A DNA stretch of 57,117 nucleotides from Syntrophobacteria bacterium (GCA_041560295.1 JBFFBS010000001.1:1-57117); one strand, 5' to 3'; positions 1,968 through 56,830 are shown, numbered from the stretch's first letter. Numbers and translations are program-made. Notes: generated by a model from the letters alone, not told the origin.

Positions 1968-2170
1968 GTCCGTTGTCCGTGGTGGCTCACTCCGTTCGCC
2001 GCAAAGCGCAGAGCGCAGAGCGTTTGGTAAACAGTAAACGGTAAACCGATTACTCGCTGGCTCCGCAACTGCTCACCGTTTACCGTTTACTGTTTTTTTC
2101 GCTTTGCGCTATGCTCTATGCGCTTTGTGTTATTCTTGCTACGGACCACTGACCAACTGACAACTGACAC
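1968..2170. repeat. Nested imperfect hairpin with heptamer-repeat arms (three tiers)
   Basis: Left arm: gtccgtt gtccgtg / gcaaagc gcagagc gcagagc / taaacag taaacgg taaacc. Right arm: ccgtttaccgtttactg ... gctttgcgctatgctctatgcgctttg ... acggaccactgaccaactgacaactgaca. The right arm is the imperfect reverse complement of the left. Confidence 0.8.
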
Positions 2171-2238
2171 CTTGTAAAAGAGAGAGGTTTTGATAAATAT
2201 CCAAATTGGTTCCAAAACTGACAAAGCGTCTGCGCCTG

Positions 2239-2571
2239 TCAGAATAATCCTGGCATTTTCATTCCTCCGGGGAGCTTCAGGCCGCCGGTGAGCTTACTCA
2301 TCTCTTCGGCCGCCATTTCCTGCGAGCGCTTCAATACATCATTTATTGCAGCTACAATCAAATCCTGCAGCATTTCTATATCATCGGGGTCAACCACCTC
2401 AGGTTCCAGGTCAATTGAAAGCAGTTCCTGACGCCCGTTGGCCTTGGCCACTACCATACCGCCGCCTACAGAAGACTCCACGATCTTATCCCCAAGTTCC
2501 TCCTGCATCTTGGCCATCTTTTCCTGCAAGACCCTGGCCTGTTTCATCATATCTCCCAAACCCTTTGCCAT
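2239..2571 (-). CDS. ybaB: Nucleoid-associated protein YbaB/EbfC
   Basis: MAKGLGDMMKQARVLQEKMAKMQEEL... is the classic YbaB family sequence. The ATG at 2571 is preceded by GAGGAGG. Confidence 0.93.
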   Translation of the reverse strand: MAKGLGDMMKQARVLQEKMAKMQEELGDKIVESSVGGGMVVAKANGRQELLSIDLEPEVVDPDDIEMLQDLIVAAINDVLKRSQEMAAEEMSKLTGGLKLPGGMKMPGLF

Positions 2572-2652
2572 ATAGAGCCTCCTCAATGTCAAGCTTTCAA
2601 ATGTACCACTAAAATATGTTTAGAGATCACGGCTTACGAAAGCATCGCCCAT

Positions 2653-2744
2653 GGAGTGTTGGAATGTTGGAGTATTGGAGTATTGTTAAGATCAAAAGAT
2701 CATAAAGATTTTTTGGGTACCACTACTCCATCACTCCTCCATCC
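2653..2744. repeat. Heptamer-arm hairpin (ggagtat family)
   Basis: Left arm ggagtgttggaatgttggagtattggagtattg; right arm ccactactccatcactcctccatcc. The same arm family recurs at 53970..54072. Confidence 0.75.
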
Positions 2745-2797
2745 TATTCTTGGCCTCTCCCACCTGCGCTTGTATAACTGCTTTCGGCTGTGTCTGT

Positions 2798-4456
2798 CTA
2801 TTTTCCTTTCTCTGGTCCAACCTTCACCTCTATTATTTCCCCGCCGAATATCTCCAAAGCTTCAGTCACTAATGGGTGTTTTAAGGCCTTCTGCTGCTGG
2901 ACCCTTTGGCGGTCCGTCTTCAGCCGCTGTTGCCGCCGGATTTCCTCACTGCCTACTGTAAGGGTGACTTTAACCCGCTCTCCAAAAATCTCCCGTGCCA
3001 ACCGGCTGAGTAAACTGAAACTCTCTCTCTCTTTGACCATTTCATAATCAAACTCATGGCCGTTGAAATCGAGCTCCAGACAGTCAGGTTGTGGCTCTCT
3101 GACACTCACCCGCTCGAGACTGGCAGCGAGCGCTGGCTTTTCCTGGCGCACTCTTTCAACAAAATCATCCCATCTGGCCGCAACAGGTTCAGCAACAGTT
3201 GTGGACTCAGCCGACTCTGCCTCTTCCGTGGGTGAATAATCAGAAGATACCTCCTGTTCACCTGGGTCCTCTGCACCTGGATAGATCACCGCGGCGGAAG
3301 GGGTGCCTCCAGAGATTCTCTGCTCCAGTTCATGCACCTGGGAAATAACGCTGTCAATATCCATAACGTGGGGAAGTTGAACCAACCGGAGAAGGCTCAT
3401 CTCCAAGACTAGCTTGGAGTTGCTGGATCTTCGGATCTCCTCTTCTCCTTTGAGAAGAAAGTGAAAGAATTGTTGGAGGGTAGCGCCACTGACGTTGGTG
3501 GCCTGTTCTTTTAATTCGGTCAGCTCAGCTTCGGTGAGATCAACAAGTTTCCCCGGCTCGTCGCTTACCTTTGCCACCAACAAATTGCGAAAGTGTGCAG
3601 CCAGTTCTTGACAGAAGCGCCTCAAATCGTGCCCGTGAAGGTAAAGCTGCTCAACGATCTCCAGGCAGCGAACCGCGTCGCCGTTGAGAATCGCCGCAGC
3701 AGTGTCAAGCAGGGCTTGGCGATCAATAACGCCGAGAACCTCCAGCAGGTCTTTGTCATCGATATTCTTCCCGGAGAAAGCAATCATCTGTTCGAGGAGG
3801 CTTTGCGCATCCCGCATGCTTCCTTCAGCCTCCTTCGCCAGCAAACGTAAACTTACATCACTGATCTCAATACCCTCTGCCTGGGTAATGTGCCGTAGGT
3901 GCTCAACTATGGCGTTCACAGCGATACGGCGAAACTCAAAAAACTGACAGCGGCTCATGATGGTGATAGGAATGCGATGGGATTCGGTGGTTGCAAAAAT
4001 GAAAATTACATGAGGTGGCGGCTCCTCCAGCGTTTTGAGCAGCGCATTGAACGCTTCTCCGGTGAGCATGTGCACTTCATCGATTATATAAATCTTGTAA
4101 GGGCTCTTGGCGGGTCGGTAGCGAATATTCTCCCGCAACTCTCGAATTTCGTTGATACCCCTGTTAGAGGCGCCGTCGATTTCCAGCACGTCCAGTGAGG
4201 CTGATCCAGTAATTTCCTCGCAAGACTCGCATTCATTGCAGGGAGTAGGGGAGGGACCTTGGGCGCAGTTCAGGGCCTTGGCCATAATCCGGGCCACAGA
4301 TGTCTTGCCGATCCCACGGGCCCCGCTCAGCAGGTATGCATGGGCAATTCTCTCAGCCGAGATAGCATTGGTCAGGCTTTGGACAACATGCGGCTGGCCA
4401 ACAACTTCTTCGAAGCTCTGGGGCCGCCATTTACGTGCCAATACAAGATAGGACAT
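2798..4456 (-). CDS. dnaX: DNA polymerase III subunit gamma/tau
   Basis: 552 aa starting MSYLVLARKWRPQSFEEVVGQ, with Walker A GARGIGKTS, a zinc module CNECESC, and the DEVHML box. Confidence 0.96.
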   Translation of the reverse strand: MSYLVLARKWRPQSFEEVVGQPHVVQSLTNAISAERIAHAYLLSGARGIGKTSVARIMAKALNCAQGPSPTPCNECESCEEITGSASLDVLEIDGASNRGINEIRELRENIRYRPAKSPYKIYIIDEVHMLTGEAFNALLKTLEEPPPHVIFIFATTESHRIPITIMSRCQFFEFRRIAVNAIVEHLRHITQAEGIEISDVSLRLLAKEAEGSMRDAQSLLEQMIAFSGKNIDDKDLLEVLGVIDRQALLDTAAAILNGDAVRCLEIVEQLYLHGHDLRRFCQELAAHFRNLLVAKVSDEPGKLVDLTEAELTELKEQATNVSGATLQQFFHFLLKGEEEIRRSSNSKLVLEMSLLRLVQLPHVMDIDSVISQVHELEQRISGGTPSAAVIYPGAEDPGEQEVSSDYSPTEEAESAESTTVAEPVAARWDDFVERVRQEKPALAASLERVSVREPQPDCLELDFNGHEFDYEMVKERESFSLLSRLAREIFGERVKVTLTVGSEEIRRQQRLKTDRQRVQQQKALKHPLVTEALEIFGGEIIEVKVGPEKGK

Positions 4457-4507: not shown

Positions 4508-4601
4508 TGGCGGAGAGAGTGGGATTCGAACCCACGGTTCCGGGGTAACCGGAACACACGATTTCCAATCGTGCCCCTTCGGCCAACTCGGGCATCTCTC
4601 C
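4508..4601 (-). tRNA. tRNA-Ser (anticodon GGA)
   Basis: The reverse complement is GGAGAGATGCCCGAGTTGGCCGAAGGGGCACGATTGGAAATCGTG...GGGTTCGAATCCCACTCTCTCCGCCA. It has a 7-bp acceptor stem, anticodon loop TTGGAAA, a long variable arm, a T-loop GTTCGAATC, and an encoded CCA. Confidence 0.93.
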
Positions 4602-4717
4602 GCATTCCAAACTTCCAGCTATCAGCTTTCAGTCTAATTTACTAGATATTACCTCAACCCTTCACGTTATCGTTTCTCTACTGTGAGCGAAACCTTGACC
4701 GCTGATAGCATAAAAAA

Positions 4718-4813
4718 TGGCGGAGAGGGTGGGATTCGAACCCACGTGCCCGGCTATTCACCGGACAAATCGATTTCGAGTCGACCCCGTTACGACCACT
4801 TCGGTACCTCTCC
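4718..4813 (-). tRNA. tRNA-Ser (anticodon CGA)
   Basis: The reverse complement is GGAGAGGTACCGAAGTGGTCGTAACGGGGTCGACTCGAAATCGAT...GGGTTCGAATCCCACCCTCTCCGCCA. It has anticodon loop CTCGAAA, a long variable arm, and an encoded CCA. Confidence 0.93.
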
Positions 4814-4875: not shown

Positions 4876-5355
4876 TTAGCGCCTGGCTCGGAAAAAAGCC
4901 TGGAGTAGCACCTCGCTGGCCTCCGCCAATATGCCTCCATAAGCCTGCAACCGGTGGTTCAGTAGGCCATCCATGCCAATTTGATAGACAGATTCAATAC
5001 CGCCCCCCTTGGGATCCGTGGCCCCATAAACCACCATGGCTAAGCGAGCCTGGACCATTGCTCCAACACACATGACACACGGCTCCAGAGTTACGTAGAG
5101 AACGTGGCCCGGCAGACGGTAATTAGCTACGTGCTCTGCTGCTTGCCGGAGCACAAGAATCTCGGCATGGGCTGTGGGATCATTCAGGCTTATGGGGCGG
5201 TTGTGAGCCCGCGCAATAATGTCACCGTCAGGAGTAACCAGAAGCGCCCCCACCGGCACTTCGCCCTGGCGCGCACCCTCCTCCGCTTCTGCCAGGGCCT
5301 CCTGCATGTAGGTTTCATGGGGGTCCAGTCCATTTGAAAAAAAGCCGGTTGTCAT
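4876..5355 (-). CDS. tadA: tRNA adenosine(34) deaminase TadA
   Basis: Contains the CMP/dCMP deaminase zinc motifs HAEILVLR and LEPCVMCVGA. The likely start is the ATG at 5355 (MTTGFFSNG...). The longer track ORF reaches 5454 and runs into a hairpin arm. Confidence 0.9.
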   Translation of the reverse strand: MTTGFFSNGLDPHETYMQEALAEAEEGARQGEVPVGALLVTPDGDIIARAHNRPISLNDPTAHAEILVLRQAAEHVANYRLPGHVLYVTLEPCVMCVGAMVQARLAMVVYGATDPKGGGIESVYQIGMDGLLNHRLQAYGGILAEASEVLLQAFFRARR

Positions 5356-5386
5356 ATGAACCACCTGTCTGTCTGCGCGAATCCTG

Positions 5387-5877
5387 GATGTGAGATTTGA
5401 GATGTGGGATGTGAGACTAAAAGCTTTACAACCTATGGTCCCTCTCAACGGCACCTATAAATCGATTAATCTTTCCTCCTAGTTGATCATATCTAGGCAA
5501 AAAATCCTCCGTGCCTTCCTGAAAATCAGGATGGCAATCTCGCACATATTCCATCCACTCAATTGTTTCATTACAAGACGCATGAGAGAAAACCAAAAAC
5601 CGGATAAATTCCGCTTTATATCGTCTCCGACAATAACCTTCCACAATGTTGGCCGAAATGGATTTTGACGAACGCCGTAATTGACTCCCTGTTTCGTAGA
5701 GTTCATATCTTGGTAAGAGCAACGAAAAATGGTGGCACGCAACACCAAGTTCATGTGCAATTTGATAGATCTCTAAATCTTTGTAGCCGGTGCCCCTAAT
5801 CACTTTCATAATTCCCTCCTCCTAATCTAACTAATTTACACCTCACATCCCACATCACATATCCCACATCACAAATG
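5387..5877. other. IVS-like cassette: heptamer-repeat inverted arms enclosing a four-helix-bundle gene
   Basis: Left arm ggatgtgagatttgagatgtgggatgtgagac (5387-5418); right arm cacctcacatcccacatcacatatcccacatcac (5839-5872). The arms share an exact 15-nt complementary core, gatgtgggatgtgag. They bracket ORF 5426..5809. Confidence 0.75.
5426..5809 (-). CDS. Four-helix-bundle protein (23S rRNA intervening-sequence protein family)
   Basis: 127 aa. The motif pattern YKDLEIYQIAHEL...LRRSSKSISANIVEGYCRRRYKAEFIRFL..A.AS.NET..W is characteristic of this family (it also includes DGR Avd). Confidence 0.85.
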   Translation of the reverse strand: MKVIRGTGYKDLEIYQIAHELGVACHHFSLLLPRYELYETGSQLRRSSKSISANIVEGYCRRRYKAEFIRFLVFSHASCNETIEWMEYVRDCHPDFQEGTEDFLPRYDQLGGKINRFIGAVERDHRL

Positions 5878-6979: not shown

Positions 6980-7573
6980 GTGGAGAATCTGAAGGGCATC
7001 AAAGATCGTTTGATGGAAATCATATTGGAGAAGTCTTTTCAATATTCGGAGGAGCCCATCTTCAAACTGGTCTCGGGTGGGGTGAGCAATTTCTACTTTA
7101 ACTGTAAGCCCACCATGCTCGACCCTGAGGGTAAAGAGCTCATTGGCCGCCTCATTTTCAGTACAATTCGAGATCTCGAGGTTGCTGGAATCGGCGGCCT
7201 GGAATTGGGCTCAGTCCCCATCTCAAGCGCGGTTTCTTTGATTTCTCAACTCGAGGGGCACCCCATTAAAGAATTCATTGTCCGCAAAGAGAAAAAAGAC
7301 CACGGCATTCCGGCAAAGGTGGAGGGAGAATTTGTTGCCGGGGAGAAAGTGGTGGTAGTTGATGATGTCATCACCACCGGAGGTTCCACCATCAAGGCTA
7401 TTGAGGCGGTACAGAAGCTGGGCCTCGAGGTTGCTAAAGTGGTTGTCCTGGTGGACCGGGAAGAAATGAACGGCAGGCAGAGCATTGAAAAACTCTGTCC
7501 GGAGGTGGAACCACTCATAAAACGGACGGAGGTCATGGCACTGTATAAGAAACGCATAGCGCATAGCGCATAG
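6980..7573 (+). CDS. pyrE: Orotate phosphoribosyltransferase
   Basis: 197 aa with a GTG start and the PRPP-binding loop VVVVDDVITTGGS. It is divergent from pyrF. Confidence 0.9.
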   Translation: MENLKGIKDRLMEIILEKSFQYSEEPIFKLVSGGVSNFYFNCKPTMLDPEGKELIGRLIFSTIRDLEVAGIGGLELGSVPISSAVSLISQLEGHPIKEFIVRKEKKDHGIPAKVEGEFVAGEKVVVVDDVITTGGSTIKAIEAVQKLGLEVAKVVVLVDREEMNGRQSIEKLCPEVEPLIKRTEVMALYKKRIAHSA

Positions 7574-7707
7574 CGTTGCACGAGAGAATCTATACCCTCC
7601 TGCTATCTTTAGATCAGCGATTCCATCATAAAGATACACTTATAATGAAGTTAATGGGTATCTCGCCTATGGTATTGGACCCATCGCTATGAGCTATGCG
7701 CTTTGCG
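7553..7707. repeat. Heptamer-arm inverted repeat spanning the convergent pyrE and MFS gene ends
   Basis: Left arm cgcatagcgcatagcgcatagcg (7553-7575); right arm cgctatgagctatgcgctttgcg (7685-7707). The arms overlap the last codons of both genes. Confidence 0.8.
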
Positions 7708-8859
7708 TTTCGCACTGAGCAGCAGCAGAATAACCGCCAGAATCTGAGCAAGTAACGAAAAAGCCACCAGAATGTAAAGATCACCGCTCCGTTGCCACAG
7801 CCAGGGCCCTAAAAGGGCACCTGCCATTCGACCAACTACCAATGCACTGAAATTGAATGCAAACCATTTCCCACGCTCTGCAGGAACCAATTCGGAGACG
7901 TAAGGAAAAATCGAGACTATGGTGAATTCAAACAGGTAAAACATAACAACGAGACCCATAAAGGCGAGAATGAGTGAGCTCTGGCAAAATGGCAGGGCCA
8001 GATAACTCAGCCCTGTAAGGATCAAACCAGCAAAAATTGCGCGTCTTTTGCCAAACCGATCAACCAAGAAAACAACGGTGAACTCACCGCCAAGTTCGGC
8101 AAGTCCCACCAGGATGGAATAGAGTCCCAGTGTCTGCACCTGGAGATTAAACTGGTTCTCCAGCCATGCTCCATAAACGATCACCATGTTTTCATTGGCG
8201 AAAACCATCAGGAGGGAAACCCCTAGAATTAAGACCGGCTTTGCGCCAACGCTGACCTCTTCCCCAGCACTCGAGACCACGTGCCTTGACGATTCTTTGT
8301 TATTAGGGTTTGACTGATTAACTTCCTGCAGACGTTTCGTACCGACGATTGCTAGCAAAGCGGCTCCGGAGATAAACACGAAGGGACTGTGCCAGCCAAA
8401 GTGAGCTATAAGCAAACCACTGAGTGGGATGCCTATCAGCCAGCTCCCCGCCCAGGATGACTCCAGGATGCCCAGAGCCCGTGCCCGTTTCGAGTATGGA
8501 ATGCGACTACTGGCAAAGGCTTGTACATTGGGGTCGTAGACGGGTTTTGATACGCCGATGAGTACAAAGCCAAGAAGGGCCAACGAAAAAGTCCGAGACA
8601 CAGATACGGTTAAACTCCCGAGAAAGAGGGCAGACAATCCAAATACCATACCCCAAGCGTACCCTTTTCGCTCCCCTAAAAGCCCCCAGAGCGCACCGGT
8701 CAGACCGACAAAATGCCGTGCCGCCACCAGGAGACCTGCCTGCTCGAAAGAGATTCCCAAACCTCTTGCGATTGCCGGCAGAAAAGGGTAGGTCACCCGG
8801 ACAGCCAGATTCAGAGTAACCCTGCTAAATAGAATTACGAACCATGTCCACTTTGACAT
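7687..8859 (-). CDS. MFS transporter
   Basis: 390 aa and highly hydrophobic, with about 12 predicted TM segments. It has the MFS loop motif GLLGERKG and a central hydrophilic loop. Confidence 0.85.
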   Translation of the reverse strand: MSKWTWFVILFSRVTLNLAVRVTYPFLPAIARGLGISFEQAGLLVAARHFVGLTGALWGLLGERKGYAWGMVFGLSALFLGSLTVSVSRTFSLALLGFVLIGVSKPVYDPNVQAFASSRIPYSKRARALGILESSWAGSWLIGIPLSGLLIAHFGWHSPFVFISGAALLAIVGTKRLQEVNQSNPNNKESSRHVVSSAGEEVSVGAKPVLILGVSLLMVFANENMVIVYGAWLENQFNLQVQTLGLYSILVGLAELGGEFTVVFLVDRFGKRRAIFAGLILTGLSYLALPFCQSSLILAFMGLVVMFYLFEFTIVSIFPYVSELVPAERGKWFAFNFSALVVGRMAGALLGPWLWQRSGDLYILVAFSLLAQILAVILLLLSAKRKAHSS

Positions 8860-8984: not shown

Positions 8985-9105
8985 TTAAGGGTCAAAAGAT
9001 GGTAGCATACACGATTGTGACGAAATGGTGGTGGAAAAAACTTCGGGAAGAGATAAAATGGGAGCTCATGAGTGTCCATCCGAAAATCAGAGATTCCCGG
9101 ATGGA

Positions 9106-9185
9106 GCTGTCAGCACTCAGCTGTCAGCGGTCAGCCTAACCTTCTGTTTTCAAATGTATTTTGCTGAGAGCTGATCGCTGATGGC
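9106..9185. repeat. Heptamer-arm hairpin (ctgtcag family)
   Basis: Left arm gctgtcagcactcagctgtcagcggtcagcc; right arm gctgagagctgatcgctgatggc. Confidence 0.75.
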
Positions 9186-12631: not shown

Positions 12632-12795
12632 TAAATCCGAATATCGAATATCGAAACTCGAAACAAATCTAAAATACTAATGCTCAAATGTTCAAAACGG
12701 TACTGGTAATGGGTCCAATCAGAAGCTTTGGTAATTTGAATTTTGAGCATTTGAAAATTGTTTCGGATTTCGTACTTCGGATTTCGAATTTTAAG
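12632..12795. repeat. Nested hairpin element, cgaaatccgaa family (core copy without the GC module)
   Basis: Left arm gtaaatccgaatatcgaatatcgaaactcgaaacaaatc...ctcaaatgttcaaaac; right arm tttgaattttgagcatttgaaaattgtttcggatttcgtacttcggatttcgaatt. Confidence 0.8.
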
Positions 12796-13411: not shown

Positions 13412-13734
13412 GAAGTAGTTAGGAGTCAGGAGTCAGGAGCCAGGAGGAAGCATTCCAACATGTAAACACCACAACAAAATATTTTCATCTTACCCCTTGT
13501 CCTTCCTAAAGATTGCCCTCTCCACCCATCTGCCGCCAACCATAATCCTTAAAACAAATGAAAAATCTTGTGCCAATGCAATATCATATGTTAAAATGTT
13601 CACATTTCTATCTATATGAAAACAGTATACAATATTGACATACAACAGTAATTATCTGTCTTAGATGTCTCTTCTCAAAGTATTCAGGAAAGAAAGCAAT
13701 GAATCACACTCGGGCAGAAAGGGGGCGGTGAAGA

Positions 13735-14783: not shown

Positions 14784-14894
14784 AAAGGAGCTTTCAGCTA
14801 TCAGAAAAAACCATAGGCAGGAAATTTTCTTTTAAGCAACTTTAGGCATTTTAGTTCACTTTAGCTCATTTTAGGCATTTCCCCAGCTAAGAGC

Positions 14895-17345: not shown

Positions 17346-17427
17346 GCGTATTTTCCAAATTTCAAATAGCGCCTACTCCACTAGCTCCACATCTAAGACA
17401 CCAGAGTCCGCTAAATGCTTTTACTAA

Positions 17428-19999: not shown

Positions 20000-20080
20000 G
20001 GTCACCAACTCATTCACGATCGAAAACTTAGTCGTTAGAGCCAAGTCAGAGTTCAATGGCTTTGCCGTCCCGAGAGGTAT

Positions 20081-20870: not shown

Positions 20871-20934
20871 GAACTCGGGCATACATTGAAATTTCTCTAT
20901 GCGATGGGGTGGATCACAACCAGGGGGATATGTA

Positions 20935-43283: not shown

Positions 43284-43556
43284 ATGACCAAGGCAGATCT
43301 CGTAGCAAAAATGGCAGATAGTGCCGGGATCACCAAAGCTGCTGCAGAAAAAGCTCTGGCCGGCTTCTTAGGGGGAGTAACCGACGCACTGAAGAAAGGT
43401 GGCAAGGTCACCCTGGTGGGCTTCGGCACTTTCAGTGTAGCAAAGAGAGCTGCTCGGGAGGGAAGAAATCCCCAGACCGGCAAAAAGATTAAGATCAAGG
43501 CTACCAAGGTCGTCAAATTCAAGGCCGGCAGCAAGCTCAAGGGAATGGTCAAATAG
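43284..43556 (+). CDS. hup: HU family DNA-binding protein
   Basis: 90 aa: [25 protein letters not shown]...[32 protein letters not shown] precedes the ATG. Confidence 0.95.
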
Positions 43557-43639
43557 ATAACCTCATGACCACTTCAGCCTTGGCTTTGTGGTAGCGGCAA
43601 CAAGTCTGACGAAAATACAAGAGTATTTATCCTGTCAAT

Positions 43640-43698
43640 AAGCGGAGCAAGATGGTCCTGTTTGGGACGTGACCATCCTGCTCCGCTTATCTTTTTTT
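43640..43698 (+). terminator. Rho-independent terminator downstream of hup
   Basis: aagcggagcaagatggtc...gaccatcctgctccgctt forms a stem of about 17 bp and is followed by a T-run (tatcttttttt). Confidence 0.8.
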
Positions 43699-43715
43699 GC
43701 AGCAAGATGTATAAG

Positions 43716-43972
43716 GTCACAAAGCAGAGTGGCTGCCATCAAATTCGAAATCCTAAATCCGAAGTACGAAACAAATCCGAAATACAAATGTTCAAATGTT
43801 CAAAACAACTTGACACGCAAAAAATGTTGTTCAATTAAATGTTTGGATCATTTGCATTTTGGAAATTTGAATTTGTTTGGATTTCTCCTTCGGAGTCCCC
43901 ACCCTTCGGGCGGGGCCCCAGTTTCGATATTCGGATTTCGGATTTATTCTGTACTGTGATTTCTGTGATAAC
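43716..43972. repeat. Nested hairpin element, cgaaatccgaa family, with the GC hairpin module in inverted orientation
   Basis: aaattcgaaatcctaaatccgaagtacgaaacaaatccgaaa...caaatgttcaaa...ctccttcggagtccccacccttcgggcggggccccagtttcgatattcggatttcggattt. The outer arms are tcacaaagcagag and ctgtactgtgatttctgtga. Confidence 0.8.
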
Positions 43973-44763: not shown

Positions 44764-44806
44764 AGAAGCCTCCTGTTGCATAATACCGACATGGTGTTTT
44801 CCAGCG

Positions 44807-44886
44807 GACAGCTGGCAGCTAGCAGCTGGCAGATTCAATAAAGTACTTTTTTGTGCTGTCTGCTGCCTGCCGCCCACTGCCTGCTG
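44807..44886. repeat. Heptamer-arm hairpin (cagctgg family)
   Basis: Left arm gacagctggcagctagcagctggcag; right arm ctgtctgctgcctgccgcccactgcctgctg. Confidence 0.8.
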
Positions 44887-44904
44887 TTTTCGAAGGGTTT
44901 ATCC

Positions 44905-45960
44905 ATGTCTCTTGTGAACAGCCGGAGTAAAGAACCGAGGCCCACTCTCGCTATAGACGTCGGTGGTGGCACCCAGGACATTCTCCTTTGGCAGCCAGAC
45001 ACCCCCATAGAGAACTGCGTTAAGCTGGTATTGCCGTCCCAGACAGTGGTGGTGGCAAATCGTATCCGTCGTTGTACCTCGCAGTCCGTTCCTATTTTTC
45101 TCACCGGTAACCTAATGGGCGGCGGCGCCTGTGTTGGGGCCCTCCAGATGCACTTACAAGCCGGACATCCTGTATACGCTGAAGTAGGGGCGGCACTGAC
45201 CATCTACGACAACCTGGATCGCGTCAGAGATTTGGGAGTGACCCTGGTGGAGGAGCCCCCACCTGATGCGCATCCGGTGATAATGGGGGACGTGGACCAT
45301 GCAGCCCTGGCCGAGGCCCTTGCCCCTTTCGAAGTTGAACTCCCGGACTCATATGCAGTGGCTGTCCAGGACCATGGTTTCTCGCCGCACGGGAGCAACC
45401 GCTTGTTCCGCTTCCAGCAATGGCGCGATTTCCTGGGTCGAGGTGGCAGATTGGATCAGCTCTGGTATGAGGAACCGCCAGACTATCTGACCAGAATGCA
45501 AGCTGTACAGCGAGACTTACCCGGCGCCCTGGTAATGGACACCGGCGCCGCTGCCATCCTCGGTGCCCTTTGCGATCCAACAGCCGCGGACAAGACCCAA
45601 GAAGGGTTGGTGGTTCTCAACCTGGGCAATCAGCATGCAGTAGCCTCGCTGGTACTTGACTCGAAAATCGTTGGTATCTATGAGCACCACACTGGTTGCC
45701 TCACGGTTGACAAGCTTCGTGATCACCTGGTCCGTTTTCGTCAAGGTACACTCAGTGATCGGGAGGTGTTCGACGACCAAGGGCACGGTTGCGTCACCCT
45801 TCCCGAAGTCGAAAATATGAGCGCTTTTTCAACTGTAGTGGTAACCGGTCCCCAACGTCATCTGGCAAAGAGTTTGGGCTATTATTTCGCCGTGCCCTAT
45901 GGCGACATGATGCTCTCAGGCTGTTTCGGCCTGATACGCGCGGCAACTGGGGCTATTTAG
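44905..45960 (+). CDS. ASKHA-fold protein, DUF1786-like (family assigned from memory)
   Basis: MSLVNSRSKEPRPTLAIDVGGGTQDILLW is an actin-like ATPase phosphate-1 motif. The ATG at 44905 is preferred because the track ORF start at 44851 lies inside the hairpin arm. Confidence 0.7.
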   Translation: MSLVNSRSKEPRPTLAIDVGGGTQDILLWQPDTPIENCVKLVLPSQTVVVANRIRRCTSQSVPIFLTGNLMGGGACVGALQMHLQAGHPVYAEVGAALTIYDNLDRVRDLGVTLVEEPPPDAHPVIMGDVDHAALAEALAPFEVELPDSYAVAVQDHGFSPHGSNRLFRFQQWRDFLGRGGRLDQLWYEEPPDYLTRMQAVQRDLPGALVMDTGAAAILGALCDPTAADKTQEGLVVLNLGNQHAVASLVLDSKIVGIYEHHTGCLTVDKLRDHLVRFRQGTLSDREVFDDQGHGCVTLPEVENMSAFSTVVVTGPQRHLAKSLGYYFAVPYGDMMLSGCFGLIRAATGAI

Positions 45961-45975: not shown

Positions 45976-46154
45976 AACTAGGCACTAGGAACTATGCACT
46001 AGGCACAAAATAATTTCTCAATTCGCATTGCATATTTCTCATTTATCATTGCGTGTCTGGCAGCCATGTCATCTCAAATCTTTTACTCATTCTTCAATTA
46101 CAAATGTGAAATGAGAAATGAGAAATTTGAAATGTCCTTAGTGCCTAGTGTTAG
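45976..46154. repeat. Two-tier heptamer-arm hairpin (cactagg outer arms, atttctc inner arms)
   Basis: Outer arms: aactaggcactaggaactatgcactaggcac and ccttagtgcctagtgttag. Inner arms: aatttctcaattcgcattgcatatttctcatttatc and aaatgtgaaatgagaaatgagaaatttgaaatg. Confidence 0.8.
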
Positions 46155-48260: not shown

Positions 48261-48344
48261 TTTTAACTAGGAACTAGGCAGTAAGCACTAGGCACTATTT
48301 ATCCGTCCGTCTGGTAGTTCTTAGTTCCTAGTGCCTAGTTAAAA
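48261..48344. repeat. Heptamer-arm hairpin (cactagg family)
   Basis: Left arm ttttaactaggaactaggcagtaagcactaggcac; right arm gtagttcttagttcctagtgcctagttaaaa. Confidence 0.85.
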
Positions 48345-48679: not shown

Positions 48680-48692
48680 TTAGACACGTTCT

Positions 48693-50423
48693 CTAATCGA
48701 AGGCAAGTGGCAAGCGGGCAGCTGCCTTCTGCGCTTGCTCAAGCATCTCCCTGGCGTGAGCCCGAGTTTTTGTCGAAATCTTTGCCCCTCCCAGCATGCG
48801 AGCGATTTCTTCCAGACGTTCTTTGCCGTTCAACTCCTGCATGGCTGTGGTGGTTCGGCCCTTACGAGAGCTTTTACGTACCACATAATGATAATCGCCA
48901 TAGCAGGCAATCTGAGGCAGATGTGTAATACAAACTACCTGATGTTGTCGGGCAAGATCCTTCAAACGCTGGCCCACCCTGTCTGCGGTGCTCCCGCCGA
49001 TTCCGGAATCCACCTCGTCAAAAATCAGGGTCTCCAGAGCGTTCTGCCCCGCCAGCAATCCCTTCAGCGCCAGGACGATTCTGGAAAGTTCTCCTCCCGA
49101 CGCGATCTTGGCCATGGGTCTGAGATCCTCACCGGGGTTGGCCGAGAAGAAAAAGGCGACATTGTCCACCCCTGTCTCATTCAAAAAGTATTCACCTACC
49201 CGAACACTCTCGGTTTCCCGGCCCCCTTCACGTTCGAAAACCACCTCAAATTGGCAACGTGCCATATCCAGGGTAGCCAACCCCTCTACCATCGCCTTGC
49301 TCAGTTGGCTCGCCGCCTTCCTACGAGCTTTTGAAAGCGCCAGCGCCTCCGACAGGGCTTGCTGACGAAGACTCTCCAGGGTCTCTTCTTTTTCGGCAAT
49401 TTCCGCTTCATCGCTCTCTGTAGCTTCCAACTGCTGACAAAGTTTATCGGCGTGGGCCAGCACCGCTCCGGTACTACCGCCATACTTGCGCATGAGCCGT
49501 TGGAGGGTTTGCAGCCTCTCCTCAACCCACTCAAGTCTATTGGGGTCTGCCTGGATTTGTTGGCTGTAGTCTCGAAGAGTGAACGAAACATCCTCAACCT
49601 GGTGCCCTATCCCCTCTAACGTCTCTGCCAGACCCTTGAGAGTTTGATCCAGATTGCCCAGATCGGCAAGGATTCTGTGACACTGGCTTACATCCTCCAA
49701 AACTGCACCGCTCTCTGAATAGAGTATCGCATGGGCCTTGGCGGTACCCTCCTGGAGCCTTTCTACGTGCCGCAGTCTCTCGCGCTCCTCCCCAAGCCTG
49801 AGCTCCTCGTCCACTTGAACGCTGGCCTGTTCTATCTCCTCCATTTGGAAACGACGAAGTTCTTCCTTTTCTTTCCGATCCATTGCCTGTCTCTGCAGTC
49901 GCCGAAGTTCTTGCTGTAGCCTTTTTAGTTCACCAAAGGTTTTTCCATATGCTGTTCTCTGGTTTTCGAGACCTCCGAACCGATCGACAGTATCCAGATG
50001 GGCTTCGGGTTCCAAGAACAGCTGATGTTCATGCTGCCCAGAAATGGACACCAGACCGCGACACAATTCAGCCAATAGTCCCACTGTGGCAAGCTGACCA
50101 TTGACATAAACTCGATTGCGTCCGGATGTAGACAGAACTCGCTTGACCACCACCTCAGGGCCGCCAGACTCCTTCATGATTGTCTGAAATCGGGCCATTC
50201 CCCTATCATCTGCCAAGCTAATTAGAGCGGTCACAGTGGCCTCTTTACTGCCGCTGCGAATGAGATCTCCAGAACCACGACTGCCCAGCAATAGATTGAT
50301 GGCGTTAACCAGAATGGATTTGCCCGCCCCTGTCTCTCCGGTCACTACGGTGAGTCCCGGTTTAAAAGAGACCGAAAGTTCATGAATGATGGCAAAATTA
50401 CTGATTTGCAGCTCAGCTAACAA
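48693..50423 (-). CDS. recN: DNA repair protein RecN
   Basis: 576 aa with LQISNFAIIHEL...VTGETGAGKSIL, a long coiled coil, and the C-terminal signature SGGELSR...LIFDEVDSGIGG. Confidence 0.95.
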   Translation of the reverse strand: MLAELQISNFAIIHELSVSFKPGLTVVTGETGAGKSILVNAINLLLGSRGSGDLIRSGSKEATVTALISLADDRGMARFQTIMKESGGPEVVVKRVLSTSGRNRVYVNGQLATVGLLAELCRGLVSISGQHEHQLFLEPEAHLDTVDRFGGLENQRTAYGKTFGELKRLQQELRRLQRQAMDRKEKEELRRFQMEEIEQASVQVDEELRLGEERERLRHVERLQEGTAKAHAILYSESGAVLEDVSQCHRILADLGNLDQTLKGLAETLEGIGHQVEDVSFTLRDYSQQIQADPNRLEWVEERLQTLQRLMRKYGGSTGAVLAHADKLCQQLEATESDEAEIAEKEETLESLRQQALSEALALSKARRKAASQLSKAMVEGLATLDMARCQFEVVFEREGGRETESVRVGEYFLNETGVDNVAFFFSANPGEDLRPMAKIASGGELSRIVLALKGLLAGQNALETLIFDEVDSGIGGSTADRVGQRLKDLARQHQVVCITHLPQIACYGDYHYVVRKSSRKGRTTTAMQELNGKERLEEIARMLGGAKISTKTRAHAREMLEQAQKAAARLPLAFD

Positions 50424-50594
50424 AATGAACCCTCTGTAATGAATGGGGGTATTTACTCCCTACCTTGTTCTCTTACTTGTCATAATAGCCAGGTAAATTC
50501 AATCGTATTTTTTGTTTGCAATCTCAACTAGCTTTTCATATTGTTGTTTTACGTAGCTAGCTGGGGCAAGATAATACAAGATGGCGCACTTCCT

Positions 50595-50627
50595 CCGCCC
50601 CCCCCTATGGGGGCGAAGGGGAAAATT
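50595..50627. repeat. GC-rich REP-like palindrome
   Basis: ccgccccc-cctat-gggggcgaaggggaaaatt. Confidence 0.6.
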
Positions 50628-50804
50628 TTTGCTTGTAGCGCGGCGTGCTGGGGGCACTCCACTACCTTCTAACCTTCCACCCAATACCTTTGACTAGAGA
50701 AATGTTTCCCTGTTGGTAGCGCCTGTGATGTAGCAGCTACAAACCACGGAGCATTGGTAGCTTATTTTTGAATGATTAGTGTGCCTCCGGAGATTCCCAA
50801 AATA

Positions 50805-50845
50805 CCCTCCCCCTTGACGGGGGAGGGTTAGGGTGGGGGTGAATT
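50805..50845. repeat. GC-rich REP-like palindrome
   Basis: ccctccccc-ttgac-gggggagggttagggtgggggtgaatt. Its reverse complement is related to 23446..23517. Confidence 0.65.
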
Positions 50846-50864
50846 CCGCCAAAAAGGTCCCGCC

Positions 50865-51449
50865 ATGAAAAACAGAGAACGAGGAATTACGCTTAATGAA
50901 CTCATAATCTCTCTGGCTGTGGTCGGCGTACTGGCCGCTGTGGGTCTGCCAAAATTGGTGAAAATAGTACCCAACTACCGTCTCACCGGCGCTGCCCGCT
51001 CACTGGTGGTTCAAATTCATAAGGCTAAACTTACGGCCATCCGCCAGGGCACCGTCTACTATCTCGACTTTGATTTTGACGCTGACGGCAATCTAGAGTC
51101 AGAAGACTGTGTTCTTTGGGGGGATCGCAACGGAAATCGACGCAAGGAACTTCTGGAGCAGAGTCAAATGATACTGGATTTAAAGACTTTTCCTGGTGTG
51201 CATCTTCACTCCTATCCTTATGAGCAAGGCGGACCGAAGCGCGGGCCTAACAAAACCAAGATCAATGCAGGTGGTGGTGACGGAGTTAGCTTCAGTCAGA
51301 ATCGAATCAAATTCAATCCTGACGGCACATGCAGTACCGGCACTGTTTACCTCCACAACAGCAACGGCCGGACCTTTGCCATTCGTATTCGCTTTAACGG
51401 CCTGACCCAGCTATGGATGCATGATGGCCAAGCTTGGAAACGATGGTAA
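50865..51449 (+). CDS. GspH/FimT-family minor pilin
   Basis: RG-ITLNELIISLAVVGVLAAVGLP has Glu+5, followed by the GspH-like helix TGAARSLVVQIHKAKLTAI. Confidence 0.8.
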   Translation: MKNRERGITLNELIISLAVVGVLAAVGLPKLVKIVPNYRLTGAARSLVVQIHKAKLTAIRQGTVYYLDFDFDADGNLESEDCVLWGDRNGNRRKELLEQSQMILDLKTFPGVHLHSYPYEQGGPKRGPNKTKINAGGGDGVSFSQNRIKFNPDGTCSTGTVYLHNSNGRTFAIRIRFNGLTQLWMHDGQAWKRW

Positions 51450-51489
51450 TTACAAGCCAGCATTGAGGTGACAGCGAAAAGCCAGTCCA

Positions 51490-52061
51490 ACTAGGCACTA
51501 AACACTAAGCACTAGGCACCAGGAAGTAAACACTAGGGACTAGGAACCGGGCAGTAAACACTAGGAACTAAGCACTAGGCACAAAAAGAAAGAAAGGGAC
51601 ACCTAATCATGGACAGAGGACACAGGGGATATCGAGATCTCAAAGTTTACAAGTTGGCCTACTCCTTAGCGATGGATATTTTTGAGGAGACTAAATCTTT
51701 TCCGCCAGAGGAAAAGTTTAGCCTCATAGATCAAATCCGCAAATCATCCCGAAGTGCTGTTACGAACATAGCAGAGGCTTGGAAAAGAAGACAGTACCCA
51801 AAAAATTTTGTGAGTAAAATTATCGATTCGGCAAGTGAAGCTGGTGAAACCGAAGTCTGGCTGGATTTCTCTAAAGATTGTGGATACCTAGAGAAATCAA
51901 AATATGATCAACTCATGAATGGATATGATGAGGTTAATCGTATGCTCTTTGGAATGGTAAGGAAACCAGACAGGTTCATATTGATACCATCAGGTAAATA
52001 GCCTTCTTACTCCATCGTATTCAGTAATCAGTGCCTAGTGTTTAGTTCCTAGTGCCTAGTT
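51490..52061. other. IVS-like cassette: cactagg heptamer inverted arms enclosing a four-helix-bundle gene
   Basis: The left arm (51490-51582) is about 13 degenerate cactagg/aacacta heptamers. The right arm (52031-52061) is gtgcctagtgtttagttcctagtgcctagtt. Together they bracket ORF 51609..52001. Confidence 0.75.
51609..52001 (+). CDS. Four-helix-bundle protein (23S rRNA intervening-sequence protein family)
   Basis: 130 aa with YRDLKVYKLAYSLAMDIF...IDQIRKSSRSAVTNIAEAWKRRQYPKNFVSK...SASEAGETEVWL. It is a paralogue of ORF 5426..5809. Confidence 0.85.
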   Translation: MDRGHRGYRDLKVYKLAYSLAMDIFEETKSFPPEEKFSLIDQIRKSSRSAVTNIAEAWKRRQYPKNFVSKIIDSASEAGETEVWLDFSKDCGYLEKSKYDQLMNGYDEVNRMLFGMVRKPDRFILIPSGK

Positions 52062-52082
52062 GAAAGAGCGCGAGGCTCTCTT

Positions 52083-53894
52083 TCAACTCTCCCCCATAGT
52101 CACTCGTATCACTTCCTCAAAAGTAGTGACTCCTCGCAGCATTTTGTCAACGGCGGACTGCTGCAAGGTTAACATCCCTTCCTCAGAGGCGACTTCCTGC
52201 AATTCCGCCAATGGGGCTTTACGGTTCGTGAGCTTTCCCAGCTTTTCGCTCATGGGCAACACCTCGAATATGCCGGTACGCCCCAAGTAACCTGTGTTTC
52301 GACATTGCAGGCAGCCCTTGCCCATTTTGAGTTCCACTTCGCTTTCCGGGTTCTTGCCCAGGGGCAAAGGAGCCAGGTCAGCAGCCCGCATCCGGTATGC
52401 TTCCTCGCAATGAGGGCAAATCTTTCTCACCAACCGCTGGGCCACAACTCCCGTGAGGGTGGAAGAGATCAGGAAGGGCTGAATTCCCAGATCAATGAGC
52501 CGGGTTATGGCACTGGGTGCATCGTTGGTGTGCAAGGTGCTGAGAACGAGGTGTCCGGTGAGGGCCGACTGCACGGCATTGCTCGCCGTTTCCAGGTCTC
52601 TCATCTCACCGATCATGATGATGTCAGGGTCCTGGCGGAGCACATGACGAAGGATGTTGGCGAAGGTCAGATTGATCTGTGGCTTCACGGCGATCTGGTT
52701 GAACTGCTCATGGACCATCTCTATGGGGTCTTCAATAGTGGTAATGTTGTTCCGTTCACTAACCAGAAAGCGCAAGCTGGAATAGAGGGTAGTGGTCTTG
52801 CCACTGCCGGTGGGACCGGTAATAAGAACAATGCCGTTGGGCACCTCTATGAGCTTGCGGTATTTAATGAGGTCGGCCGATGAAAACCCCAGTCCCTCAA
52901 GGTCCTGCAAAAGAATGTCAGGATCCAGAATGCGGAGCACTGCCTTTTCACCGAACGCCACCGGCACGGTTGAAACCCGAATTTCCGCCTCATTGCCACT
53001 TCGTTCCACCTTGATACGCCCATCCTGAGGCCGTCTTTTCTCAGCAAGGTCCAGCCGAGCCAAACCCTTGATCCTCGAAAGAATTGCCGGATGCACACTC
53101 TTGGGTATCCGGTAAATGGTATGCAGGAGCCCGTCGATGCGAAGCCTCACAATGGTTTGGTCCCGCTTGGGCTCAATGTGTACATCGCTTGCACGCTGAT
53201 CAAAACCGTAGGTGAACAGGTGGTCCACCGCATTGGTTATATGTTGATCGCTTGAGGAGATCTCGTCGGCCGATTGCAGCCGGGTGAACTGTTCCAGGTT
53301 TCCCAGATCCACCAAGGGCCGGCTTATCTGATGGTCAGCGGCGACAATGGAACTCTTGAATCCGTAGAACTCCGAGATGGTCTTGATAATGTCACTCTTG
53401 GTGCTGATCAGCGCTTCTACCCGTTTCTGGGTGACCCGCTCGATATCCTCCAAAACTTGGCGATTGAAGGGATTATAGACCACCACGGTAATGGTCTCCA
53501 GGGAACTTTCCACCGGGAGCACCATGTGTTTCAGGGCAAAGCTTTTCGGAATGGTTTGGGTTACCAACTCCAAATCCAGCTCCAATGGATCAATTTTCTT
53601 GAAAGCCATGCCCAGTTCAGCTGCCACTGCCCTCATAATGGCCTCTTCATCCAGACGGCCATCCGCACCCGCACCCGGCACCAGTTCCATGGAGGCCAGA
53701 ACATCCACCGGGGTAATCTCAGCATCGCAGCTCTGGGCGGAGAATCCCCCTCTTTTGACCTTGCAAATCTGAGCCAGTTTTTCCTGCTGCACAGGGGCTT
53801 TCTTATAGATTATCTTCTCCTGGTGTGGGCTGATCAGACCACACCTGCGGAGTATCCCAACCAAATATTCCAGATCCAACTGGGTTGAACTCAT
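52083..53894 (-). CDS. PilB/GspE-family type IV filament assembly ATPase
   Basis: 603 aa with Walker A GPTGSGKTTT, Walker B IIMIGEMRD, LSTLHTNDA, and tetracysteine CPHC...CLQC. Confidence 0.92.
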   Translation of the reverse strand: MSSTQLDLEYLVGILRRCGLISPHQEKIIYKKAPVQQEKLAQICKVKRGGFSAQSCDAEITPVDVLASMELVPGAGADGRLDEEAIMRAVAAELGMAFKKIDPLELDLELVTQTIPKSFALKHMVLPVESSLETITVVVYNPFNRQVLEDIERVTQKRVEALISTKSDIIKTISEFYGFKSSIVAADHQISRPLVDLGNLEQFTRLQSADEISSSDQHITNAVDHLFTYGFDQRASDVHIEPKRDQTIVRLRIDGLLHTIYRIPKSVHPAILSRIKGLARLDLAEKRRPQDGRIKVERSGNEAEIRVSTVPVAFGEKAVLRILDPDILLQDLEGLGFSSADLIKYRKLIEVPNGIVLITGPTGSGKTTTLYSSLRFLVSERNNITTIEDPIEMVHEQFNQIAVKPQINLTFANILRHVLRQDPDIIMIGEMRDLETASNAVQSALTGHLVLSTLHTNDAPSAITRLIDLGIQPFLISSTLTGVVAQRLVRKICPHCEEAYRMRAADLAPLPLGKNPESEVELKMGKGCLQCRNTGYLGRTGIFEVLPMSEKLGKLTNRKAPLAELQEVASEEGMLTLQQSAVDKMLRGVTTFEEVIRVTMGES

Positions 53895-53969
53895 TTACAT
53901 CGACTCCTGAGGAAAGAATCCAAGCCCTGACGGGACATTGGGCGGCTTTCCTTTATAGGAAAGTCTGCT

Positions 53970-54072
53970 GGAGTAATGGAGTGGTGGAGTAGTGGAGTAA
54001 TGAAAGAACTCTTTCAAGTTGAAATTCGAGCTTTAAGTTTTTCCAACACTCCAATACTCCAGTACTCCAAAC
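53970..54072. repeat. Heptamer-arm hairpin (ggagtaa family)
   Basis: Left arm ggagtaatggagtggtggagtagtggagtaatg; right arm caacactccaatactccagtactccaaac. Confidence 0.8.
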
Positions 54073-56063: not shown

Positions 56064-56118
56064 AAATTGAAAACCCCTCGACTTTGCCGAGGTATTGTTA
56101 AGCTAGGTTAGAAGATAA

Positions 56119-56718
56119 ATGAACTGGGTTGGCATGAAAACAGATCAGGGTCCAGTAAAATCCCCCCGAACCCCCCTTTACAAAAGGGGGAAGACTTTAA
56201 AGTGGTTTCAACAAGTTCCCCCCTTTCATAAAGGGGGGTTCGGGGGGATTAGGAAACAACAAGAAGGCTATAGCCTCGTAGAAGTTCTCATTGCCATTAC
56301 CGTTCTGGCGTTTGGTCTCATGGCGGTGGCTACCATGCAGGTCACGGCCATTAAGACCAACGCCACAGCAAGCGGCATCTCGCAGGGACTGACCCTGGCC
56401 CAAACCAAGGTGGAAGAGTTGATGAACCTGTCATATGACCATCCAGACCTGGATGATGACGGTGGTGGAATCAACAACGGTACCGGCCAGGACTTAGACG
56501 ACGACGGTGTAGACGACGATGGGGACAATTTTGGTTTGGATGACACCACCGGCGCAGACGGTTCAGAAGCCATTGGCAGCAGATATACCATCTATTGGAA
56601 CATTGCCGTCGATGAACCAGTCACTAAGAGCAAAACTATTAGAGTGATTGTAACCTGGACCGAAAGGGGAAGAGATAAACGTATTGCCCTGGATTTTGTC
56701 AAGACTGATTTGAGTTAG
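56119..56718 (+). CDS. pilV: PilV-like minor pilin (start codon uncertain)
   Basis: EG-YSLVEVLIAITVLAFGLMAVATMQ is the PilV pattern. The only in-frame ATGs (56119 and 56134) give a leader of about 50 aa that is encoded by REP-like palindromes. Confidence 0.7.
   Translation: MNWVGMKTDQGPVKSPRTPLYKRGKTLKWFQQVPPFHKGGFGGIRKQQEGYSLVEVLIAITVLAFGLMAVATMQVTAIKTNATASGISQGLTLAQTKVEELMNLSYDHPDLDDDGGGINNGTGQDLDDDGVDDDGDNFGLDDTTGADGSEAIGSRYTIYWNIAVDEPVTKSKTIRVIVTWTERGRDKRIALDFVKTDLS
56157..56250. repeat. Inverted pair of GC-rich REP-like palindromes
   Basis: aaaatccccccgaacccccctttacaaaaggggg and ttcccccctttcataaaggggggttcggggggatt are mutually reverse-complementary. Confidence 0.75.
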
Positions 56719-56722
56719 TGCT

Positions 56723-56748
56723 CATCTGAAAACGGTCGTTTTCAGATG
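56723..56748 (+). terminator. Perfect 11-bp stem hairpin after pilV (no T-run)
   Basis: catctgaaaac-ggtc-gttttcagatg. Confidence 0.4.
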
Positions 56749-56753
56749 AACGC

Positions 56754-56830
56754 GATCAGCTATCAGCACTCAGCCATCAGCAAAATGTATATAAATACAA
56801 ACTGACCGCTGATTGCTGAAGGCTGACAGC
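56754..56830. repeat. Heptamer-arm hairpin (cagctat/ctgtcag family)
   Basis: Left arm gatcagctatcagcactcagccatcagc; right arm ctgaccgctgattgctgaaggctgacagc. Confidence 0.8.

Follow-up and report, generated by a model that had tools for sequence, protein, structure and literature searches.

Reports of tandem heptanucleotide repeats (STRR) in bacteria go back to 1990, and no explanation of why they are over-represented has gained acceptance. The intervening sequences (IVSs) of 23S rRNA are among the described systems closest to the elements reported here. In the Coxiella burnetii IVS, the open reading frame (ORF) for the S23p protein is preceded by three to four tandem copies of GACAGAT whose number varies between strains. 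The ends of this IVS pair into a 28-bp stem, and the mapped RNase III cut lies where the first repeat begins (PMC4990558). Excision of the IVS from the transcript by RNase III is known in Coxiella, Leptospira and Salmonella (PMC4990558). Structures of the PF05635/S23p protein of rRNA IVSs have been solved, and it has no known function. Repeats of related design include about 70 convergent pairs of GGGAATC heptamers in Xanthomonas (Rehm 2015, PMC4692102), opposite-strand pairs of three to five tandem 7/8-mers in Geobacter metallireducens, which are intergenic, variably spaced and divided into classes 1–3 (Aklujkar 2009, PMC2700814), and the TAACTGA repeats of Beggiatoaceae and Bacteroidetes, whose sporadic phylogenetic distribution resembles that of horizontally transferred DNA (MacGregor 2015, PMC4679880). 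Here we analyzed a 57,117-bp stretch of DNA from a Syntrophobacteria bacterium (the window), which is an entire NCBI contig of a metagenome-assembled genome (MAG) with 50% GC. A first-pass annotation had described about 20 intergenic hairpins in it, with arms of tandem degenerate heptamers, and knew of no repeat class with such a design; the Coxiella, Xanthomonas and Geobacter repeats are published counterparts. That observation was confirmed and its interpretation was right in part. With modest confidence, we lean towards reading the hairpins as one class of small palindromic cassettes that have the architecture of 23S rRNA IVSs and lie between protein-coding genes, with arms cut by RNase III and repeats recognised by the encoded protein.

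The predicted enrichment of period-7 repeats over shuffled sequence was borne out. Over the whole window, 32 of the 55 Tandem Repeats Finder rows had period 7 and five more had periods at multiples of 7. Exact 6-mer self-matches at lags of 7, 14 and 21 numbered 109, 73 and 91, respectively, compared with about 17, 17 and 12 after dinucleotide shuffling. A simple array caller returned 24 arrays at period 7 and 0–4 at each other period from 4 to 12. Array density was 4.2 per 10 kb, about 24-fold above the 0.175 per 10 kb found in 1.31 Mb from 80 unrelated bacterial loci; this background came from a GTDB scan with LigA and is diverse, the best LigA identity among the matches listed being about 50%. 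The arrays, 33 of 35 of which are intergenic, were paired with each other as inverted repeats in an inverted-repeat search of the window, and all elements lie between protein-coding or tRNA genes, none in an rRNA helix. Each arm consists of 3–13 contiguous, degenerate tandem 7/8-mers. The purine-rich arm is 5' and the pyrimidine-rich arm 3' in 19 of 22 hairpin tiers, and the same holds in 13 of 13 independent cargo families. Only this purine-to-pyrimidine polarity is informative, since an inverted repeat is the same on both strands and the orientation of the arms relative to transcription carries no information.

The claims of the first-pass annotation on folding and architecture fared variously. 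Of the loci it cited, 19 of 21 folded beyond dinucleotide shuffles, with z between −2 and −9.5. A weak trace at 14789–14803 found no support (fold z about 0), and another at 4615–4709 did fold although its periodicity is marginal. The seven-nucleotide period given for all loci applies to most of them, the GGAGTAT loci at 2652–2743 and 53969–54070 having period 8 instead. Many of the longer spacers do carry an element, as claimed, but 'nearly every' overstates 19 of the 28 spacers of at least 100 nt (68%). Nested tiers are indeed present. The arms had been thought to differ locus by locus; they fall instead into about a dozen recurring families that are common to several loci and to related genomes. 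The annotation was also correct in setting the hairpins apart from repetitive extragenic palindromic (REP) sequences and bacterial interspersed mosaic elements, there being no REP-associated tyrosine transposase (RAYT/Y1) and the arms not being a single palindrome of about 20–35 nt, and from CRISPR, the units being contiguous and degenerate and lacking spacers.

The two widest arm pairs, 5387/5839 and 51490/52031, had been taken for simple hairpins; each surrounds a whole gene. Both enclosed genes are complete, small and co-directional with their neighbours, have their own ribosome-binding site (RBS), and encode PF05635/TIGR02436 "four helix bundle protein", also known as "23S rRNA intervening sequence protein" (IVP). 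In cassette 1, the gene for the 127-residue IVP1 (5426–5809, minus strand; Pfam 2.6e-22) lies between a 5' arm of GATGTGG/GATGTGA on the sense strand (5838–5870) and a 3' arm of the GATGTGA family, pyrimidine-rich on the sense strand (5387–5415), which is 90% complementary to 5842–5870. In cassette 2, the gene for the 130-residue IVP2 (51609–52001, plus strand; Pfam 7.4e-31) is preceded by about 13 ACTAGGC-type heptamers (51488–51582) and followed by a GCCTAGT-type arm (52004–52062). All four IVP variants scored 81.9–95.5 bits with TIGR02436 against a curated cutoff of 24, IVP1 at 81.9 and IVP2 at 95.5 bits. The nearest solved structures, PDB 2RLD and 2GSC, have five chains each. Identity with Avd, the accessory protein of diversity-generating retroelements, was rejected, as the NF033474 scores, 23.9 and 45.4 bits, fall short of its cutoff of 80 and the window holds no reverse transcriptase. 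Among the 45 window ORFs of at least 100 residues, the two PF05635 genes were the only ones with significant flanking inverted repeats. The full-length form of the element is therefore n tandem 7- or 8-mers, an RBS, a small cargo gene and n complementary units. Most window copies are gene-less and built of the same repeat families as the cassettes, and some are nested in one another's loops. ACTAGGC, for instance, forms gene-less hairpins at 45976 and 48261 as well as the arms around IVP2, and GATGTGA occurs gene-less in a related contig (L081).

Repeat and cargo protein vary together. Four syntenic relative contigs were available, with LigA identities to the window of 91% (L081), 80% (L082), 77% (L083) and 70% (L085). 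At the GspH–PilB locus, the IVP is only 50% identical to that of the window in L081 and 21% in L083, where LigA is 91% and 77% identical; the arms there are of ACTAGGC in the window, CAGCAGG in L081 and GAATATCGAA in L083. A metagenome scan with IVP2 yielded 80 loci at 64–90% identity. Flanking inverted repeats at z>4 were present in 54 of the 74 testable loci, essentially all of one heptamer, A[C/G]TA[A/G]GC (ASTARGC); of 124 control ORFs from these loci, just 4 reached z>4. Members of this family average 67% amino-acid identity, and their four-fold sites, at 33% identity, have reached saturation. Despite this saturation, 62 of 78 loci keep at least three cognate units upstream and at least three complementary units downstream (background 0.5 per 170 nt), which indicates that the repeat sequence itself is maintained, beyond mere pairing. 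IVP1-family genes (65–76% identity) were found in three unrelated operon contexts with GATGTGR arms (z = 11–20 in six of seven loci), and two contigs of this family with an identical protein differ by exactly one 7-nt unit. Each cargo-protein subfamily holds its own repeat sequence even where synonymous sites are saturated. Three scans of viral contigs with other IVP variants gave no matches, and no additional PF05635 genes turned up when the 80 diverse control loci were searched with a hidden Markov model.

Comparison with the relatives revealed dispersed elements that turn over fast in hypervariable intergenic slots, with copy number shifting in exact 7-nt steps; the first-pass annotation had suggested looking for such gains, losses and copy-number changes in sister genomes, and the syntenic relatives display them. 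The closest LigA homologues (69–79% identity) carry source labels of Deltaproteobacteria or Syntrophobacteria/Syntrophobacterales. Array density is patchy among L081, L082, L083 and L085 (7.3, 0, 4.1 and 0.45 per 10 kb, respectively), and the window's repeat families reappear in relatives, but in other spacers. In the LigA–AcyP spacer, the window (48261–48344) and L081 have an outer ACTAGGN hairpin in common, the loop of which holds an extra ATTTCTC/GAGAAAT element of about 115–125 nt in L081 and not in the window. This inner element (L081 6372–6500) is 92% identical to the reverse complement of window 46005–46140, which lies in a non-orthologous spacer, and the sole indel between the two is exactly 7 nt. 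In the slot between HU and PNP, about 150 nt after the HU stop codon (43557–43705) are conserved in all five genomes, down to 70% LigA identity, and this region, ending in a GC-rich stem and T-run at about 43641–43699 (a classical terminator), may also be a structured 3' untranslated region or a small RNA. Beyond the terminator the five genomes are unalignable, each with a different repeat element or none. The RecN–GspH–IVP block is inverted between L081 (6900–10400) and the window (48680–52100) with both breakpoints in spacers holding CAGCAGG-family arrays, a position that suggests that inverted repeat arms recombined.

Within the window, the CGAATAT/AAATCCG family occurs at 12633, 17459 and 43741, and CACAGAG forms outer tiers at 17428, 42013 and 43716. 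The composites at 17425–17720 and 43712–43965 share 76% identity; they differ by block indels and in the orientation of a GC-rich mini-hairpin, GGGGNCCCGCCCNNAGGGTGGGGA. The mini-hairpin, at 17636–17659 (plus) and 43896–43919 (minus), has opposite orientations relative to the two composites and occurs nowhere else in the window or in any of the 190 fetched loci; it looks like a further nested unit. Certain heptamers recur across phyla: AATGGAT is common to a Syntrophobacter and a Neomarinimicrobiota MAG (L033 17318–17397, L037 43–66), and CTCAAGA to a Pseudomonadota and a Rhodohalobacter MAG (L039 4135–7552, L078 10147–10271). Such sharing by unrelated phyla is consistent with horizontal spread or with a limited repeat repertoire.

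The pairing of cargo gene and repeat extends to plasmids. A tblastn search of 72,556 plasmids with IVP2 matched 36 records, almost all cyanobacterial. Seven of ten sampled homologues, from Cyanobacteria, Bacteroidota and Alphaproteobacteria, have significant inverted arms of their own 7/8-mer, the units being GGGAGCA, GGGGAGCA, CTCTGCC, GGGAAAA, TAACTGA-like (Bacteroidota, L187), TCTCCGYG-type (Leptolyngbya, L181) and GACRGAG (Azospirillum); two further homologues have arrays in another arrangement. In Azospirillum lipoferum (L186), the PF05635 ORF between GACRGAG arms is located inside the large-subunit rRNA, which makes this copy a genuine IVS. A second gene family emerged from the controls, where two apparent false positives proved to be TIGR04256 GxxExxY proteins between CACAGAG/CGCAGAT repeats (L120 874–1242; L124 2883–3254). 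GxxExxY homologues on plasmids of Bernardetia, Bacteroides and Gemmatirosa (among L191–L196) likewise have CACAGAG/CGCAGAGGA arms, and GxxExxY cassettes often lie between housekeeping genes, such as fabD and fabG in Sphingomonas. The GxxExxY family is reported to be PD-(D/E)xK-like, which would make it a candidate nuclease; the term 'GxxExxY' is absent from the searchable literature, an incomplete collection. For six window families the data include a cassette with cargo: ACTAGGC, GATGTGA, CAGCWGG and CGAATAT go with four-helix-bundle genes, and CACAGAG and CGCAGAG/CGCATAG with GxxExxY genes.

How the window elements relate to the described systems can now be specified. Like the 23S rRNA IVSs with an S23p/PF05635 ORF (Coxiella burnetii, Leptospira and Azospirillum lipoferum), they have a small four-helix-bundle ORF in the loop and a long stem of terminal inverted repeats, and in the Coxiella (GACAGAT) and Azospirillum (GACRGAG) IVSs the stem is likewise of tandem heptamers with a purine-rich 5' arm. 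They differ in that an rRNA IVS sits in a 23S helix (9, 25 or 45), whereas the window elements lie between protein-coding or tRNA genes, are mostly gene-less and nested, and comprise many heptamer families per genome. Their best classification is as a variant of the IVS-type repeat-armed cassettes that lies outside rRNA and is largely gene-less and nested. The Xanthomonas GGGAATC pairs are similarly intergenic tandem heptamers near the end of the upstream gene, capable of forming stem-loops and varying in length between species, but constitute a single G-rich family studied as G-quadruplexes with no associated gene reported (PMC4692102). The paired-array design of G. metallireducens is the same as that of the window, and its class 2 motif, TCTCCGTS, recurs in L082 and L083 and beside the PF05635 gene of Leptolyngbya (L181); its repeats have been read only as speculative sites for integration host factor (IHF) or HU, with no link to cargo, IVSs or mobility (PMC2700814). 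TAACTGA repeats and STRRs are also intergenic tandem heptamers, the window has CAACTGA arrays, and the Bacteroidota PF05635 gene has TAACTGA-like arms. The published repeats are, however, essentially direct arrays (one inverted case, in Beggiatoa) upstream of start codons and without a cognate protein (PMC4679880). Cyanobacterial plasmids dominate the PF05635 matches, while the window's host is labelled Deltaproteobacteria/Syntrophobacteria. REPINs and their RAYTs offer the parallel of genome-wide intergenic hairpins of inverted units and a single-copy gene with cognate repeats that track the gene clade (Bertels and Rainey 2011, PMC3116915), but the cassette gene here encodes a four-helix-bundle protein (elsewhere GxxExxY) rather than a Y1 (IS200/IS605-like) transposase, and tandem 7/8-mers make up the arms in place of one REP palindrome of about 20 nt. 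MITEs (miniature inverted-repeat transposable elements) share small size, gene-less intergenic copies, inverted termini, patchiness among relatives and nesting; they differ in that the window elements have variable-length tandem repeats as termini, no target-site duplication was seen, and no parent insertion sequence with a transposase lies in the window or in the relatives' loci. Integron attC sites, CRISPR and intrinsic terminators were rejected on architecture. We found no paper linking the repeats to a cognate protein in a searched literature that is incomplete and from which only the Coxiella paper surfaced.

By homology with the Coxiella IVS, the arms would form imperfect duplexes of 20–60 bp in transcripts, and RNase III cutting of these duplexes would uncouple the flanking cistrons or free the cargo mRNA. 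It is probable that the encoded protein recognises the repeats, the repeat unit being the presumed recognition module for an oligomeric (pentameric) protein that may act in trans on gene-less copies, paralleling the relation of RAYTs to REPINs. We put forward more tentatively, as a possibility that could well fail, a broader proposal: that tandem 7/8-nt repeats have as their sequence-specific partners the TIGR02436/PF05635 IVS proteins, which are homopentameric four-helix bundles related to Avd, and perhaps the TIGR04256 GxxExxY proteins too, with one unit per subunit; that these proteins and their cognate arms make up a single class of selfish protein–repeat elements spanning phyla; and that rRNA IVSs, cyanobacterial STRRs, TAACTGA repeats, Xanthomonas GGGAATC pairs, Geobacter sites and the heptamer excess among bacterial simple-sequence repeats (SSRs) are all its footprints. 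The pairing of two small protein families with specific tandem repeats across phyla is apparently unreported. If each such protein has a cognate repeat around its gene and in gene-less hairpins, the puzzles of the heptamer excess and of the S23p function both become directly testable, and repeats that current annotation lists as sites of regulators, as G-quadruplex motifs or as simple SSRs would have a single origin. Practical consequences of the elements are inflated ORF calls and broken assemblies, and their positions in genomes mark hypervariable slots and the breakpoints of inversions.

Several results weigh against reading the hairpins as IVS-type cassettes. Although the elements are probably RNase III substrates, their processing is extrapolated from rRNA IVSs. 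Fold energies of the plus and minus strands showed no consistent bias, and the stem mismatches (18 G·U, 31 A·C and 80 transversions) were not enriched in G·U on the sense strand and hence gave no positive signature of selection at the RNA level; a DNA-level role of the arms, as cruciforms or in protein binding, may apply. No mobilising enzyme was identified, there being no transposase, RAYT (Y1_Tnp) or reverse transcriptase among the window ORFs, and comparisons of filled and variant sites turned up no target-site duplication or clean empty site. For about half of the window repeat families no cargo-bearing copy was seen. The arrays around the cargo gene are direct, not inverted, in Oscillatoria nigro-viridis pOSC7112.02 (L182), in Prevotella (L196) and in L120, so pairing across the cargo gene is not universal. 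Finally, the co-variation of protein and arms could in part reflect co-inheritance and homogenisation instead of binding.

These gaps leave room for other explanations. The hairpins might be MITE- or REPIN-like non-autonomous elements whose movement depends on a conventional transposase with its gene at another place in the genome, with the cargo genes as chance passengers in their loops. Dispersed families, near-identical copies at non-orthologous sites, nested insertion, patchiness among relatives and an L081 inversion broken within repeat spacers would all fit such mobility. We nevertheless consider it unlikely, as neither the 57 kb nor the relatives' loci hold a transposase or RAYT, no target-site duplication was seen, and chance passengers leave unexplained why a subfamily-specific heptamer persists across saturated divergence and unrelated contexts. 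Slippage could instead have made the arrays as simple-sequence repeats, which selection then shaped in situ into stabilisers or terminators at mRNA 3' ends, without mobility or a protein partner. The exact 7-nt indels and the many elements directly after stop codons are in keeping with this, as is the heptamer bias of bacterial long SSRs, an excess ascribed to polymerase slippage (Mrazek 2007, as cited in PMC4679880 and PMC4692102). A 125-nt element that is 92% identical at different sites cannot be convergent, however, and slippage accounts neither for the same families across loci and genomes nor for their strong association with two specific small-gene families; the elements also have no U-tracts, and the conserved true terminator after HU is a separate structure. 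We regard slippage as improbable.

An equally improbable explanation, in our judgement, is that the arrays are DNA-level sites for a nucleoid protein or global regulator of the IHF/HU type. It was proposed for an identical design in G. metallireducens (PMC2700814), whose TCTCCGTS motif extends to L082/L083 and Leptolyngbya, and it sits well with the missing G·U signature of RNA selection. A conserved regulon would hardly use about a dozen unrelated heptamers in 57 kb, or have the occupant of a slot replaced between close relatives, and the link to enclosed cargo genes and rRNA IVSs would be left unexplained. Stable hairpins at gene 3' ends would suit intrinsic transcription terminators or attenuators, but we hold this explanation to be highly implausible. 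Terminator-like sites were at background in the window (22 against 19.4 expected), with none of them at a heptamer hairpin; the stems are far longer than those of terminators and lack U-runs; several elements lie inside conserved operons such as dnaX–ybaB–recR; and the classical terminator upstream of the HU–PNP element stands separately from it.

The other window elements were located as follows. A multi-tier gene-less hairpin occupies the recR/ybaB spacer at 1968–2170 (fold z −6.5/−4.0 and −3.5). Within it, three copies of CGCAGAG (2000–2022) pair with 2096–2127, an inner tier pairs GTAAACA x3 (2027–2046) with ACCGTTT x3 (2075–2095), and an outer CAACTGA array lies at 2144–2169. The ybaB/dnaX spacer holds a period-8 hairpin of four TGGAGTGT units paired with a CACTCCAT-type arm (2652–2743; z −4.0), and a second member of this family, TGGAGTAA paired with TCCAATAC, is found at 53969–54070 (z −6.8). 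The weak hairpin at 4615–4709 (z −4.8 on the plus strand) lies in the 116-nt spacer of two tRNA-Ser genes with anticodons GGA and CGA (4508–4601 and 4718–4813, minus strand; Rfam). Between convergent PRTase and MFS genes, a CGCATAG x3 hairpin at 7549–7711 has 90% arm match (z −6.5/−6.9) and arms that overlap both stop codons. A CAGCTGT-family hairpin at 9105–9181 is in a divergent spacer (z −2.2/−2.6), and CGAATAT/CGAAACT pairs with TTTCGGA in the thiolase/GNAT spacer at 12633–12791 (z −3.4/−5.9). The array of 4.7 AGTCAGG copies at 13414–13446 is direct and alone, without an inverted partner (z about 0).

Further along, the composite nested element at 17428–17717 (z −5.3) combines outer CACAGAG, AAATCCG and CAAATGT tiers with the GC-rich mini-hairpin, and its paralogue at 43716–43955 occupies the hypervariable slot after the conserved HU terminator. 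AAGGCAC pairs with CCTTGTG upstream of an M23 peptidase gene (20081–20171; z −5.7). Two elements of one family follow an NHL-repeat gene (AGGTGTC/CTGAAAC, 35923–35997; z −3.9) and the secretin gene (TCAGGTG/CTGAAAC, 40804–40881; z −3.0). At 42013–42256, a CACAGAG-type outer tier encloses a non-periodic 30-nt palindrome (42102–42163; z −9.5). CAGCTGG pairs with TGCTGCC in the PNP/DUF1786 spacer (44802–44887; z −2.5/−3.6). The ACTAGGC outer hairpin at 45976–46154 carries the nested ATTTCTC/GAGAAAT element of about 125 nt (46005–46140) in its loop, and the ACTAGGC hairpin at 48261–48344 lacks it (z −3.3). The last element, an ATCAGCA/CAGCTAT-family hairpin, follows the pilin gene at 56752–56831 (z −7.1).

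The gene content surrounding these elements, by Pfam, includes POR, recR, ybaB, dnaX, a tadA-like deaminase, pyrF, thiolase, priA, a type IV pilus cluster, ligA and recN; the HU gene lies at 43284–43556. Rfam matched no family at any hairpin, its only matches in the window being the two tRNAs, with no rRNA. Several ORF calls are stretched through repeat arms: 4876–5454, 18674–20188, 44851–45960 and 6980–7573. The DUF1786 protein has 369 residues in the window against 350 in relatives, and the starts of the TadA-like and M23 ORFs pass through arms. Automated annotation of repeat-rich genomes of this sort will over-extend genes. Two further repeats differ from the heptamer hairpins. In an 823-residue ORF without a Pfam hit (20899–23370), a 27-nt tandem repeat of 12.3 copies at 87% identity (22889–23221) is in frame and encodes a 9-residue protein repeat unrelated to the hairpins. 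At 56159–56250, a 32-nt inverted repeat (94%) with C6/G6 runs (AATCCCCCCGAACCCCCCTTTACAAAAGGGGG and its complement) is not heptameric and lies just upstream of the real pilin start, the N_methyl motif beginning at residue 45 of ORF 56119–56718.

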